DNA from: a virus
Reading direction: 5' to 3' (one strand)
DNA length: 64,000 nt
IMG/VR virus record: IMGVR_UViG_3300031088_000737
Coordinates: 117,271 to 181,270 of that record
Below, piece by piece: positions 21,425-63,130 of this stretch. A model generated the notes under the pieces. That model was not told the DNA's origin, ran no database searches, and saw only the letters and a list, made by a program, of their open reading frames with translations. Made by a program: the position numbers and the translations under genes. Every line of letters begins with the position of its first letter. The first letter of the stretch is position 1.

Positions 21425-22084
21425 TTATATATTGATCATTTCTATAAGTTTATTATAGCTTTTTATATTTCTTACAAATGATTCATTAGTTTCATTTTTT
21501 AAATCAATTGATAATAAATCAGATACAAGTATCTTGAGTGAGTTTATATTTTCCTGCGATAATTGTGCTTTGGATCTATCAAGGTGGTCTAATATAATAT
21601 GTGTAATGAGATGCCATTCAGTGGTCTTAGTGTATCGGTTGAAGCGTAGTTCGATATCACCACCATGTGGTTCAGCCCTACAAGCATAAGATTTGTATTC
21701 TAATTCACCAAAATAAGGAATGGTTAATTTTTTGTTGTTATTGTAATTGTTGTAGGTTTCAAATCCATTTTGAGTGAGCAGTATATCACTAATGGTTTTA
21801 ATTTCTCCCGGTTCAAAAAGGAGTTCATCTGCTATGATGACTGATTGACCATTAGCCATGTATTCAAGTAAGGCGACTTCGTTCAGTTTTCCATTAATAC
21901 GAGTTCGTATAGGAATTGTCTTCTTATTTCTAAATTCGAGCGTTAAATTAAATGGATAATATTTTGAAAACATGTAAAATAAAAACTTTTCTGGAAATTT
22001 GTTTGATGGATTCATTGTCATGTTTTGAGCAATGTCTAACAGGTTTGAATGTTCTTCACACTCAGCTAAGGTTTTAAAAATCAT
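21425..22084 (-). CDS. Hypothetical protein, MxxI-tail family
   Basis: Ends LIEMINI; AGGTGG SD. Confidence 0.65.
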   Translation of the reverse strand: MIFKTLAECEEHSNLLDIAQNMTMNPSNKFPEKFLFYMFSKYYPFNLTLEFRNKKTIPIRTRINGKLNEVALLEYMANGQSVIIADELLFEPGEIKTISDILLTQNGFETYNNYNNNKKLTIPYFGELEYKSYACRAEPHGGDIELRFNRYTKTTEWHLITHIILDHLDRSKAQLSQENINSLKILVSDLLSIDLKNETNESFVRNIKSYNKLIEMINI

Positions 22085-22235
22085 AAATTACCACCTTTTA
22101 TCAATGTCATCATTTGGCGATCCTTCTGTTTACAATTTCATAATATCATAAAAAAATAATAATCAAATAGTTGTTTACTTTTTGACTTTTAAGTATTTTA
22201 GTATACAATTTTATATAAACTCATATAGAAAAATA

Positions 22236-22967
22236 ATGTTAAAACGCATATTAATTACAAGTTTATTTTTACTTTCAACCACTTCATTTGCTCAAGACAA
22301 TAGACATCAAAGAATTACATCTCAGGAAGAATTAGATCGAGAGATAGTGTATTTAATGAAAAAATTTGACTATGAAAAGCCTGATACTTTAATTCGATTA
22401 GTTGATTATGTTAACCGCAACTCAGAGGTGAGAGGTTATGTGATCAATAAATTTTCAATGAGTGCTACTAAAAATGATAAGAAAGGTAAAAACATTAAGT
22501 TTATTGTTGATTATATCAGTCAAAATATTGTTGAATTAGACACCTCTAATATCCCTAAAAATGGTGAATGGCAAGGACAATCAGGACACTCGCTGTTCTT
22601 TATTAATGGGAATACCCATTCTTATTCCACAGAAGAGATGAGACAAGCAGCTCCCTATGGTATTCCATTTGAATATGGATATCCTAACTTTACCAGTTTT
22701 AGAGTGGGAGACTTAATTCCAATTCAAAATCCAACCGCCTCCTATCCACATGATTATGAGAAAGTTGTCAATCAAATCATTATGGAAAAGAAACCTATCA
22801 ATGGCATTGTTTTCAATAATGCTGCTGAGTTTAAAGAATATCTGCAAACGAACCTTATTAACTTGCATTATGCTCATGATGAAAATGCGTTTGAATTTTT
22901 ACCCAATACTGTTGTGTCAGTCATCAACTATGAATTACCACACATATCAAAAAGAAAGCCTCATTAA
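22236..22967 (+). CDS. Secreted hypothetical protein
   Basis: Signal peptide MLKRILITSLFLLSTTSFA. Confidence 0.65.
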   Translation: MLKRILITSLFLLSTTSFAQDNRHQRITSQEELDREIVYLMKKFDYEKPDTLIRLVDYVNRNSEVRGYVINKFSMSATKNDKKGKNIKFIVDYISQNIVELDTSNIPKNGEWQGQSGHSLFFINGNTHSYSTEEMRQAAPYGIPFEYGYPNFTSFRVGDLIPIQNPTASYPHDYEKVVNQIIMEKKPINGIVFNNAAEFKEYLQTNLINLHYAHDENAFEFLPNTVVSVINYELPHISKRKPH

Positions 22968-23398
22968 GAGGCTTTTCTTTCATCTACATACTGGTTAAGC
23001 AAGAACTCAAATTCGGCTGGTGATAAGCCAAAGAAGTATTTTACTTTTTCATTGACCGAATTTACTACATAATTACTCTTTGAGATGATTCTTACAGCCC
23101 CTTGACCATATTCAATTAAAATACCTGCATTGATATTAGCAACCTTTTCAATGTTGTATTTAAATACTGGATGGTAATCAAAAGGATTAACCCCATCTTT
23201 GTAGCGGTTATCTCTAATGGTGACATCGACATGTTTACCTTTAATAATCGCATAGAACATAAAGATTTCTAAACTGCAGTTGTGTTTGTTTTCTTGGTAC
23301 CCTTCTCGAAAGGTGACCACTGCTTTTTTTATTAAATCTCTTTTATTCATTTCAGTTTCAGTGACTTCGTTAGTTTTGTTTTGTTCAATAGCGTTCAT
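22964..23398 (-). CDS. Hypothetical protein, last gene of the pth2 operon
   Basis: AGGAG SD; coupled to the upstream stop. Confidence 0.65.
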   Translation of the reverse strand: MNAIEQNKTNEVTETEMNKRDLIKKAVVTFREGYQENKHNCSLEIFMFYAIIKGKHVDVTIRDNRYKDGVNPFDYHPVFKYNIEKVANINAGILIEYGQGAVRIISKSNYVVNSVNEKVKYFFGLSPAEFEFLLNQYVDERKAS

Positions 23399-23400
23399 GA

Positions 23401-24000
23401 TTATTCTCCTAATAGTTTATCATTAAATTTTTTGCCGATTTTGTTAATTTTTTTCCATTTGATTTTAAAGCTCGTTGATTCAATACCGCCAAACATGGAA
23501 GCATTACTATGAATCTCACAGAAGCCAGTAATCAAAAGGGTTGCAGCGAATGGTAGTGCATAGAACTTTTCAAAATCATCCATTTTAAGCAAATGAATGT
23601 CCATATCATGCTCCATCAATTGAGCTTGAAGTTCAGTGCCACCGATTTTACGCCAGATTAGACCAGATGCTTGTGCATGGTCAGGGAAGTGACGGTTACC
23701 ATTTTCATCAATAGTCAAACAGAAGGGTTTACCACAGTCGTGATAAATCTGATAAGTGTTGATGTCTTTTTCGTCTACTAAGTTATTCCAAATAGATTTG
23801 TTATAAATCCAATCAGGAAGTCTCCATTCGAGTGTTAATGGTTTTCCATCAATAATGTGATCTTTCAAATCTTGAAAGTATTTATTGACTGATAATCCAT
23901 GTTGAAGAACATTCATGCCTTGTGTTTGTTCACAGGCTTTCATCTCTTTAACAAGATCTTTGAAGCTAAGGTTTTTAATGTTATCAATCTACATAGTCAT
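23401..24000 (-). CDS. HD-domain phosphohydrolase-like protein with an in-frame TAG at codon 4 (track ORF 23401..23943)
   Basis: HG...YHDCGKP...HAQAS...HDMDIH; AGGAG SD precedes ATG ACT ATG TAG ATT GAT AAC, in frame with the ORF. Confidence 0.7.
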
Positions 24001-24028
24001 GGTCGTTCTCCTAATAAGTAATGTTGTG

Positions 24029-61563: not shown

Positions 61564-61571
61564 TGAGATAC

Positions 61572-61597
61572 AAAAAAAGCCCTTGAGGGCTTTTTTT
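61572..61597. terminator. Bidirectional intrinsic terminator
   Basis: AAAAAAAGCCC-TTGA-GGGCTTTTTTT. Confidence 0.85.
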
Positions 61598-61598
61598 G

Positions 61599-62207
61599 TT
61601 ATTCCAAGGTATTAAATAATGCTTCATCATCACCGCACTTGGCTTTTAATTTATCAATCCAAGCTTGGTTTTTGACTTTACACCTTACAATCTTATTTCT
61701 AACTACGGCCTTACCAATAACACCTTCGAATGTTACACCATCCAGTGTCCCTGTTTTAATCTTTTCTATCATGGTTCTATTGAACTTTGAGATAAGAAGA
61801 AAATCCGACATTTCTACGGAACCATCAAATGCTTTGATGTATTCTTTCGGTGGTAAGTAACCAATTCTACCAATGTGAGCGTCGATAAGTGATACTTTGA
61901 AAGTATCTGTTTCATCATGGAAACCTGCAAAAGAATTAGGGCCATGAAACTCAAAAAAGAGTGTTCCATTTTCCCATCTGTGCTTTTTAAAGATATCATA
62001 CACAGCTTTTTCATAGCCCATAATCAATTCTTTTGATTGATTAAGAATGCCTGAATCATCTGACATTAATTTCTTTCTTGTTCCAAACTTATCAAAACCC
62101 TTTTTAAGTGAGTATTCCACTCTGATGTTAGAACCGTCTAACTTATCAAAAATGTAATAATCAACGTCTTGAATAATGCCTTTCCCTATTGATGGATACT
62201 GTTGCAT
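61599..62207 (-). CDS. ATP-dependent RNA ligase-like nucleotidyltransferase (Rnl2-type adenylation domain only)
   Basis: KLDGSN (motif I), FFEFHG (III), EGVIGK (IV), RCKVK (V). Confidence 0.75.
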   Translation of the reverse strand: MQQYPSIGKGIIQDVDYYIFDKLDGSNIRVEYSLKKGFDKFGTRKKLMSDDSGILNQSKELIMGYEKAVYDIFKKHRWENGTLFFEFHGPNSFAGFHDETDTFKVSLIDAHIGRIGYLPPKEYIKAFDGSVEMSDFLLISKFNRTMIEKIKTGTLDGVTFEGVIGKAVVRNKIVRCKVKNQAWIDKLKAKCGDDEALFNTLE

Positions 62208-62353
62208 ATATAAATCTCCGATACTGGCGATAATATTTATGCATAAAATATTATCAGCCTATTTTCATCTGCTTAATCTTTCGCAGATATTTTTTAAGTG
62301 TTTGTTTTAGTTTATTCTTTTTACTCTTACTGACTTTCATGATTAGTTACCTC

Positions 62354-63130
62354 CTAAATGGTAATCATTTTAACAATTGTCTTCATTCTTTCATATTCTT
62401 CATCAGTGACTTCTTTTGGCCTCTTATTAGTTTCAAGAAGACCATATTCATCAATAATATTCTTACTATAGGTTAAAAATACTTTTTTAAGTTTATGTTT
62501 AAAAAAATCAGGTCTGACATTGCTTAAATCAAAGACAGATGTGCCATAGATAAATTTACTGTCTTGTATTCTAAACTTTACTCGTTCTACCAATCCATTC
62601 GACAATGTAATAACAGATAAGGAGCAGTTCATTCGTTCAGAAACGGTGTTTCTTGATTTAATAAACAAAACAGTTTTCACTTTAATTTCAAAAGCAAATT
62701 TATTCGTTCTTTGTCTGTTCTCAAAATCACCTTTGCTGTAATCAAATTCTGGCAAGGCTTCTGGTAAAATGTCGCTGACTTCATTCAAAAATCTTTTAAT
62801 GTAATCTATTGAAGCTTGATCATTGGGTACCACAGTGAACCCGCTATTCAAAAAGACTTCTTTAACTTTACGAGAATCACCCGTGATATTAACCACTGTA
62901 TTTTGCTCGCCTCGGTCTGTTGAAACCATTGTGAAATAATTTGAGTAATCAAATTTGTACACCACTCGACCTGTTTTAAGGTTTTTATTTTTAAAGGCAG
63001 GTACAAAATCTTTCACAACACCTACAAAATTAGAATGCATAACATCTTCAAGAATTTCTTGAGTGACATTATCCGACAGTTGGCTCACTGTCATCTTTTT
63101 TGGTAATGGTTGTGTGTTTAGCTCTTCCAT
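62354..63130 (-). CDS. Hypothetical protein, MxxI-tail family
   Basis: Ends IVKMITI. Confidence 0.7.
   Translation of the reverse strand: MEELNTQPLPKKMTVSQLSDNVTQEILEDVMHSNFVGVVKDFVPAFKNKNLKTGRVVYKFDYSNYFTMVSTDRGEQNTVVNITGDSRKVKEVFLNSGFTVVPNDQASIDYIKRFLNEVSDILPEALPEFDYSKGDFENRQRTNKFAFEIKVKTVLFIKSRNTVSERMNCSLSVITLSNGLVERVKFRIQDSKFIYGTSVFDLSNVRPDFFKHKLKKVFLTYSKNIIDEYGLLETNKRPKEVTDEEYERMKTIVKMITI

Follow-up and report, generated by a model that had tools for sequence, protein, structure and literature searches.

A stop-anchored Met-tail helix, a candidate docking or export handle not described before, on very fast-evolving proteins of an AT-rich, probably megabase-scale element

It was not until 2025 that megabase-scale, AT-rich extrachromosomal elements were described, and no function has been assigned to about 80% of the genes that they carry. 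In Enterobacteriaceae, the pMEGA megaplasmids reach 1.58 Mb and are AT-rich (the guanine-plus-cytosine content, GC, is 26% in pMEGA4), carry up to 208 tRNAs and about 80% hypothetical genes, and contain tandem multicopy families and type IVb pili (bioRxiv 10.1101/2025.09.30.679422). They encode a full Dot/Icm-type secretion system; for pMEGA4, Table S8 of Guitor et al. (bioRxiv 10.1101/2025.09.30.679422) includes DotM, DotN, IcmW, and DotB along with DotL, which serves as coupling protein. A C-terminal motif is not mentioned in that paper. Here we describe such a motif, a tail built around a Met residue, on proteins encoded in a stretch of 64,000 nucleotides (hereafter the window), which is the last 64 kb (positions 117,271 to 181,270) of the IMG/VR virus record IMGVR_UViG_3300031088_000737. 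No paper describing this tail was found in the literature.

In poxviruses, the ankyrin/PRANC F-box proteins form large, fast-diversifying paralogue sets that carry a constant short C-terminal helical module for one machine. In T4, the proteins gp43, gp55, and gp33 have portable and interchangeable hydrophobic-acidic C-terminal tails, which follow a variable linker and bind a single hub, gp45 (PMC2988020). In Legionella, DotM reads the C-terminal signals, and the authors of that study suggest that DotM may have co-evolved, in other species, with different kinds of tail (PMC5802825). Legionella effectors that are inserted into the inner membrane need a C-terminal signal facing the cytoplasm and have short periplasmic loops (PMC11602083).

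The original prediction, made from the letters of the window, listed 13 open reading frames (ORFs) that share the tail and regarded it as a portable tag recognized by one partner. All 13 tails are present in the translations as quoted, with the pattern phi-x-x-M-x-x-phi-stop (phi, hydrophobic residue). Met is located at position -4 in 12 of them, the exception being the ORF at 46650, where one extra Ser moves it to -5. The carriers are on both strands, as stated, with three (41069, 41926, and 48083) on the plus strand and the others on the minus strand. The prediction denoted each ORF by its low coordinate, which we retain; for the three plus-strand ORFs it is the start and not the tail (Table 1). 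The whole record (G000; 181,270 bp, 31% GC) was analysed together with a relative (G001; a 437-kb IMG/VR record, 31% GC), 618 kb in all, and both records are fragmentary, with 181 and 437 kb out of about 1.9 Mb per element. Met occupies -4 in 46 of the 202 genes given by a simple gene call of G000, against 2.4-2.7% Met overall (binomial p 6.6e-29), and the same is true of 103 of the 563 genes of G001 (binomial p 6e-53). Enrichment was one of the checks proposed with the prediction, and the excess is far above chance in both records. The tail is borne by about a fifth of the element's proteins.

The conserved unit consists of 15 residues when the proteins are aligned from the stop codon. The distal half has an acidic residue at -15, Thr or a hydrophobic residue at -13, Asp, Glu, or Asn at -11, and often Tyr at -10. 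The proximal half has hydrophobic residues at -9, -7, and -6, Glu, Lys, or Asp at -5, Met at -4, a hydrophobic residue at -3, and Ile, Tyr, Phe, or Val at -1. Bias is also seen in columns that played no part in the choice of carriers, towards hydrophobic residues at -6, -7, and -9, acidic residues at -5, -11, and -15, and Thr at -13 and -17; upstream of -17 the signal is that of the background. The polar positions (-5, -8, -11/-12, and -15) form a single stripe on a helix, and the remaining surface is hydrophobic. About three quarters of the tail surface is hydrophobic, and the free carboxylate is placed three residues after Met. Over the last 20 residues the carriers have a net charge of -1.4 and the other proteins one of +0.5 (p 1e-17), and the bias is limited to these 20 residues. 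This charge and the helix seen over the last 15 residues in AlphaFold models of both modelled families confirm the acidic amphipathic helix that had been proposed to precede the motif.

The position of the tail relative to the stop codon is nearly fixed. When all 3,783 Met-centred 15-mers of the G000 and G001 proteomes were scanned with the tail matrix, those scoring at least 12 bits comprised 104 at the terminus, 3 within 1-3 residues of the end, and 4 internal ones. C-terminal extensions of 1-3 residues are rare, and the tail, like a Dot/Icm-type signal of the last 20-35 residues, is at the free C-terminus. Of about 150 tails, about 139 retain Met, and in more than 90% the protein ends exactly three residues after it. 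A few carrier paralogues have Ile, Phe, or Ala at -4, or one added residue, and keep the remaining motif, while no tail-less paralogue of a carrier was found. Since codon third positions vary, TAA, TAG, and TGA are all in use, and the 30 nucleotides past the stop are unconserved, the conservation is at the protein level and not at the DNA level. These observations support the tail as a discrete unit that is selected at the protein level and tied to the stop codon.

The carriers are 128-351 amino acids (aa) long (5th-95th percentile). They span soluble proteins, proteins with four transmembrane (TM) segments, and a carrier module fused behind an enzyme, as had been proposed. TM segments are absent from 128 of 141 carriers, whereas 11 have 2-4 segments followed by a soluble domain of 93-127 aa. 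A signal-peptide-like start is found in 1 of 141 carriers versus 34 of 624 other proteins (p 0.012). Because the K/R-rich loops of the clear 4-TM carriers are on the same side as both termini, the tail faces the cytoplasm; the periplasmic loops of these proteins have 4-21 residues. In the window the carriers form tandem arrays (29617-32329, 41069-42867, 45967-47441, and 55593-57406). Their GC content is 29.8% versus 32.2% in other genes. A homologue between G000 and G001 is detectable for 13% of the carriers, with a median identity of 33%, versus 20% of the other genes at 45%, and by this comparison the carriers diverge faster than the other genes. Pfam has no family for any of the 10 carriers tested, PHROGs has only phrog_21276 for the N-terminal domain of the 492-aa fusion protein, and the protein atlas searches gave no name for the carriers.

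The conservation of the tail was compared with that of the body in two carrier families, A3 (ORF 41926) and A4 (ORF 62354). In A4, no other 15-residue window is as well conserved as the tail (pairwise identity 0.90 versus 0.65 elsewhere), and in A3 it is above the family average (0.67 versus 0.53 elsewhere). The A4 profile found only 8 clusters among 1.84 billion representative proteins, and the terminal tail is present in 5 of the 5 that were read, down to E 1e-4. Diverged A4 relatives keep the tail: an orthologue with 27% identity ends in ...IVKMILI, and a match at E 1e-4 ends in ...LVEMYSI. The tail outlasts the divergence of the body beyond sequence recognition.

After removal of the tails, the bodies of 149 proteins with Met at -4 from G000 and G001 (compared by BLASTP and phmmer) give 115 phmmer clusters. 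A hidden Markov model of the 64 C-terminal residues of A3 matched no other family. The hhalign probabilities are 0.04% for A3 versus A4, 0.1% for A7 versus A3, and 2.4% for A7 versus A4; in the last pair the final 55 columns are co-linear, though weakly (E 0.019). Contrarily, the predicted folds are alike. The AlphaFold models of A3 (313 aa, 15 sequences) and A4 (258 aa, 13 sequences) have predicted template modelling scores (pTM) of 0.77 and 0.78, respectively. The last helix (residues 298-312 in A3 and 243-257 in A4) is the tail and comes after a loop of 11 and 14 residues, respectively. Both models show the same order of elements, namely an N-terminal helix, a four-stranded sheet, helices, a sheet of five long antiparallel strands, one or two helices, the 11-14-residue loop, and the 15-residue tail helix. 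The predicted local distance difference test score (pLDDT) of the tail helix is about 72-85 in both models, which come from shallow alignments.

No significant structural match to either model was found in the PDB, since the best VIA-align Z scores (6.5 for A3 and 5.8 for A4) are under the noise guide of the tool, and Foldseek of the A3 model against the PDB and BFVD gave no match. The top-50 structural neighbours of A3 and A4 among 48,161 chains nevertheless overlap in 16, where about 0.05 is expected by chance. The neighbour lists divide the two proteins alike: KA1-like structures match the N-terminal part, and the second part is matched by Med17C, coproporphyrinogen oxidase, bilin reductase, and frataxin-like alpha-beta sandwiches. 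Nearly all the aligned ranges leave out the tail helix. We read A3 and A4, on these models, as members of one very divergent, undescribed two-domain superfamily in which the tail is an appended last element; this previously unseen fold would be of interest by itself. Many carriers probably belong to the same superfamily, though two models are not proof for all 115 clusters, and the short carriers and the TM carriers are too small for the complete two-domain fold. The earlier claim that the subgroups have no obvious similarity to each other elsewhere therefore stands for sequence and fails for the predicted fold. A likely single superfamily also comes close to the case that the prediction itself had named as speaking against it, namely that all carriers are simple paralogues with the tail as part of a shared fold.

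The nature of the DNA that encodes the tail should be considered before its partner. The phage setting that had been assumed is not supported, and we rejected it as a reading: Terminase_6N is absent from the 618 kb, no near DNA match except a tRNA was found among 50,697 phage records, and no phage-type large proteins were found. The large proteins are ClpA, an aminoacyl-tRNA synthetase, an asparagine synthase, a kinase, an RNA ligase, a peptidase M3, or proteins without assignment, and most of them have no Pfam family. A protein identical to the product of window positions 41926-42864 is encoded on a 1,859,102-bp contig, and contigs of 1.84 and 1.92 Mb contain homologues. IMG/VR labels G000 as 'provirus' and G001 as 98% complete. 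Because no terminase is present in the 618 kb and identical proteins occur on 1.86-Mb contigs, the viral label is doubtful, and both it and the estimated completeness seem to be mistaken. The best explanation is an extrachromosomal element of megabase scale and AT-rich composition. The closest cellular homologues of the conserved window genes are gammaproteobacterial (40-50% identity). Searches of metagenome, genome, and viral collections for relatives returned only G001 or ordinary gammaproteobacterial homologues; the collection ecoli_genomes gave nothing relevant, and the plasmid collection gave only ordinary ClpA homologues of less than 41% identity.

The general features of the pMEGA type are present, as judged from the 1.84-1.92-Mb contigs, the 31% GC content, the 12 tRNA genes of the window, the mostly hypothetical genes, and the lack of a terminase. 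The likeness extends to the megabase size, the very AT-rich composition, tRNA arrays, translation genes, about 80% hypotheticals, tandem families, type IVb pilins, Clp components, and the absence of phage genes. On the other hand, the contigs here are larger (1.84-1.92 Mb versus at most 1.58 Mb), and 31% GC differs from the 26% of pMEGA4.

The tail is constant on more than 100 diverged bodies, and this constancy is best explained by a docking handle for one trans-acting partner, a reading that we regard as probable. Such a partner would also sense the free C-terminal end. The occurrence of the tail on soluble, 4-TM, and enzyme-fused proteins fits a handle for a single partner, and the Met-tail helix has the look of a handle for docking or export, of a kind not described before, borne by a protein family that evolves very fast. 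No PDZ_2 domain was found in the G000 and G001 fragments. One recognizable end-motif on about 20% of the genes is an entry point to the dark matter of the element, in that it defines a coherent protein class, predicts a common partner, and makes this partner findable.

As the reader of the handle we tentatively put forward the coupling complex of a type IVB (Dot/Icm-like) secretion system, with the tail serving in docking or translocation; by analogy with the described systems this is possible, though we would not call it probable. The tail would be read by the substrate-recruiting coupling complex of a pMEGA-like Dot/Icm-type (I-type) type IV secretion system, and the carriers would be the transferred proteins, the soluble ones directly and the 4-TM ones after extraction from the inner membrane. 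Three considerations led to this choice. The carrier population has the traits of a Dot/Icm effector repertoire (a share of about 20% of the genes, paralogues in tandem arrays, a lower GC content, and faster divergence), the C-terminal signals of Legionella are read by DotM (PMC5802825), and the inner-membrane effectors of Legionella resemble the 4-TM carriers (PMC11602083). The tail is like the signals read by DotL-DotM-DotN-IcmSW in Legionella and Coxiella in that these are in the last 20-30 residues, end in a free C-terminus, face the cytoplasm, and combine acidic residues with hydrophobic ones close to the end (PMC5802825, PMC11602083). The carriers are like the Dot/Icm effectors in forming a large, fast-evolving, low-GC, and paralogue-rich set, which includes inner-membrane proteins with a cytoplasmic C-terminus and short periplasmic loops. 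If the reader is Dot/Icm-like, the tail would be the first consensus signal of a type IVB system to be sharply defined, and the carriers would be a plasmid-borne effector repertoire of gut Enterobacteriaceae-like hosts; if the reader differs, the tail would mark a new addressing system.

Several observations weigh against this proposal. The known Dot/Icm signals are degenerate, Glu-rich, and bound in an extended form, whereas the tail here is a hydrophobic helix that is sharply defined and has a Met that is nearly invariant. It contains no E-block, as acidic enrichment is found only at -5, -11, and -15, with a merely mild net charge of -1.4 per 20 residues. VirB4, the T4SS-DNA_transf coupling protein, a DotB-type T2SSE ATPase, and an FtsK/SpoIIIE ATPase all gave no match above the cut-off in the G000 and G001 fragments. 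The pMEGA megaplasmids are the closest described elements by shared features and not by sequence comparison, and kinship with them is putative. The pLDDT of the tail suggests that, in the free state of the modelled proteins, it is packed against the rest of the same chain. Finally, common descent would account for part of the sharing of the tail should the carriers form one superfamily.

The last two points lead to an explanation that needs no external reader and that we consider rather unlikely. The tail would be an intramolecular cap or latch helix, that is, the best-conserved core element of one divergent superfamily, shared by descent. A3 and A4 have the same order of secondary structures, 16 of 50 neighbours in common, and the same two-domain split without sequence kinship, as this explanation expects, and a pLDDT of about 72-85 from shallow alignments is as for a packed helix. 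The weak co-linearity of the last 55 columns of A7 and A4 and the lack of carrier paralogues without the tail point the same way. However, a packing helix should co-vary with its body and should accept Leu or Ile in place of Met as well as extensions, whereas Met is almost always kept. The stop is also held three residues after Met in more than 90% of the tails, though neutral read-through would run for about 12 codons on average at 31% GC. Moreover, the tail is found on bodies that are too short, such as the 93-127-aa domains behind TM segments and carriers of 111-131 aa.

It is improbable, in our estimate, that the tail plugs the carriers into an AAA+ machine (FtsH, or ClpA together with ClpP). 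It would then be a degron that shortens the life of the carriers, or the adaptor end of F-box/PRANC-like proteins, which would hand over targets bound by the variable body. The tail is a non-polar, stop-anchored, and cytoplasmic C-terminus, and substrate-receptor families are likewise built from a variable body and a constant end. The window encodes a ClpA homologue that is about 40% identical to gammaproteobacterial ClpA and has an IGF tripeptide at residues 614-616 of D2, which we take to be the ClpP-docking loop. ClpP and three FtsH-like proteins are reported to be encoded on pMEGA4 (bioRxiv 10.1101/2025.09.30.679422). Nevertheless, G000 and G001 contain no convincing ClpP, the sole match being 18 bits and under the cut-off. 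The known ClpA/ClpX tags, of the ssrA-like kind, are short and unstructured, whereas the tail is a predicted 15-residue helix with a pLDDT of about 72-85, and the constant breakdown of a fifth of the proteome seems costly. The connection between ClpA and the carriers is their co-residence on the element, nothing more.

A broader form of the docking handle would make the tail the universal plug of a diversifying library, in which hundreds of fast-evolving two-domain 'receptor' bodies bind varied targets of the host, of rival plasmids, or of defence systems and deliver them to one secretion ATPase or AAA+ unfoldase/protease. We hold this to be a long shot. Its model is the PRANC F-box families of poxviruses, which likewise have a variable body and a short constant C-terminal helix that plugs into one machine; in contrast, their hosts are eukaryotic, their fold and motif differ, and a ubiquitin-like or protease partner has no support here. 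If true, the library would be a bacterial counterpart of the F-box/PRANC families with an undescribed addressing code for a fifth of the proteome.

A non-secretory hub is about equally doubtful. It could be a sliding-clamp-like toolbelt, a scaffold or compartment shell, or tail-tail pairing between the carriers. The precedent is the binding of T4 gp43, gp55, and gp33 to gp45: the layout here is the same, with a portable hydrophobic/acidic C-terminal tail and a variable linker on otherwise unrelated proteins (PMC2988020). The T4 ligands, however, are three in number and parts of DNA or RNA polymerases, whereas the carriers are hundreds of orphans, some of them membrane proteins, and not DNA-transaction enzymes. 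No Pfam or PHROGs family for replication or transcription proteins was found among them, and 11 of 141 are polytopic membrane proteins. Neither a gp45-type (DNA_PPF) nor a beta-type (DNA_pol3_beta) clamp is found in the 618 kb, and 100 to several hundred ligands per clamp are without known precedent. Chance or a nucleotide-level feature (a DNA/RNA signal over the stop codons, or an effect of AT-rich composition) has a negligible probability. In its favour, the genome is AT-rich and the ATG is invariant through the selection of carriers, but the variants with Ile, Phe, or Ala at -4 retain the rest of the motif, the binomial p of less than 1e-28 rules out chance, and the variable third codon positions, the three stop codons, and the unconserved 30 nucleotides downstream rule out a signal in the DNA or RNA.

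Table 1. Tail carriers and other features of the window.
Feature	Coordinates	Strand	Product	C-terminal end	Tail score (bits)	Remarks
Carrier	21425..22084	-	219 aa, soluble	...KLIEMINI	18.6	Tail encoded at 21428-21472; no Pfam or PHROGs family
Carrier	29617..30429	-	250 aa (ATG 30369) or 270 aa (TTG)	...NVLKMYMV	8.6	Lowest score of the 13; opens a run of three consecutive carriers
Carrier	30576..31619	-	342-347 aa	...DLVAMLNF	13.1	
Carrier	31607..32329	-	182 aa (ATG) to 240 aa (GTG)	...TIYDMWRF	13.8	
Carrier	41069..41899	+	276 aa from GTG 41069	...SLIKMALI	11.6	Tail at 41852-41896; paralogue of 41926..42867
Carrier, modelled family A3	41926..42867	+	313 aa	...NILKMTLI		Tail at 42820-42864; terminal K-M-x-x-I in 14/14 homologues of 46-85% identity
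Membrane carrier	45967..46635	-	222 aa, 4 TM and 93-aa cytoplasmic C-domain	...VVAKMYCI	18.0	Both termini predicted cytoplasmic (K/R 11 vs 2 and TM prediction)
Membrane carrier	46650..47441	-	256-263 aa, 4 TM	...KVAEMYLIS	10.4	Score after one-residue shift; K/R 13 vs 2
Fusion protein	48083..49561	+	492 aa; 1-275 enzyme-like (phrog_21276), 276-492 carrier module	...KLINMLTI		Tail at 49514-49558
Carrier	55593..56198	-	201 aa	...NTLEMALL	16.1	First of a conserved trio; G001 orthologue of 34% identity ends in ...TVYEMISL
Carrier	56205..56729	-	131 aa (ATG) to 174 aa (TTG)	...SLADMNKI	14.5	G001 orthologue of 32% identity ends in ...QVIEMAKC
Membrane carrier	56741..57406	-	221 aa, 3-4 TM and 100-aa C-domain	...SVADMANI	19.4	G001 orthologue of 34% identity ends in ...TLNNMIEI
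Carrier, modelled family A4	62354..63130	-	258 aa	...TIVKMITI		
Aas-like gene	409-2277	+	MFS-plus-acyltransferase			
Pilin gene	3325-4167	-	PilS-N type IVb pilin-like protein			
clpA	4275-6572	-	ClpA homologue			
Fusion gene	14969-16114	-	PPAT-CoaE fusion			
Sir2 gene	19020-19832	+	Sir2 protein			
OmpA-family genes	32457-35562	+	Four tandem paralogues			
tRNA array	38834-40977		12 tRNA genes			Includes Ala-tgc x5, Ala-ggc, Arg-tct x2, Arg-cct, and Met-cat x2
tRNA-like gene	39239-39313		Two-base anticodon 'tt' per ARAGORN			
Kinase-like gene	44297-45727	+	HipA_C/LepB_N kinase-like protein			
ART gene	51840-53750	+	636-aa ART-PolyVal ADP-ribosyltransferase-like protein			43% identical in G001

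The GTG start of the ORF at 41069 is considered real because the N-terminus aligns with the paralogue and with database homologues. In the fusion protein, the match to phrog_21276 covers residues 108-259 (PHROGs E 4e-56), and the enzyme-like residues 1-275 make up a protein of their own both in G001 and in unrelated huge phages. The last 217 residues correspond to a stand-alone gene of 232 aa with its own start in relatives, one of which is on a 1.84-Mb contig, and the tail is always terminal. Because this stand-alone tailed gene exists, the moved unit is the entire carrier module and not the bare 15 residues. Separately, the enzyme of G001 stops at the fusion junction with ...LKAIEI, which is tail-like with Ala for Met.

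Three further ORFs of the window were rejected as carriers. The ORFs at 6800-7186 and 16900-17094 have Met at -4 by chance, with negative tail-matrix scores, and the ORF at 26413-27138, which ends in VADMNNPS and could have been a 14th carrier, has a negative score and paralogues without the tail. The minus-strand paralogues at 35609-36397 and 36408-37106 end in ...YKILNNILK and ...YKILDTILK, respectively, which are tail-like without Met and score 9 bits when the Met column is omitted. A homologue of the 62354-63130 protein (P0021) has, from the Met on, a 38-residue unrelated extension in place of the tail (...IVKWLPF...), which looks like a frameshift or assembly error.

Among the OmpA-family paralogues, the one tested (33628-34281) matches the OmpA and glycine-zipper families, and its neighbours end in a common RRVEIQI-type motif. 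The Aas-like protein is 86% identical between G000 and G001 and at most 50% identical to any species-representative genome, the best being gammaproteobacterial, and its gene is a useful marker for the lineage.

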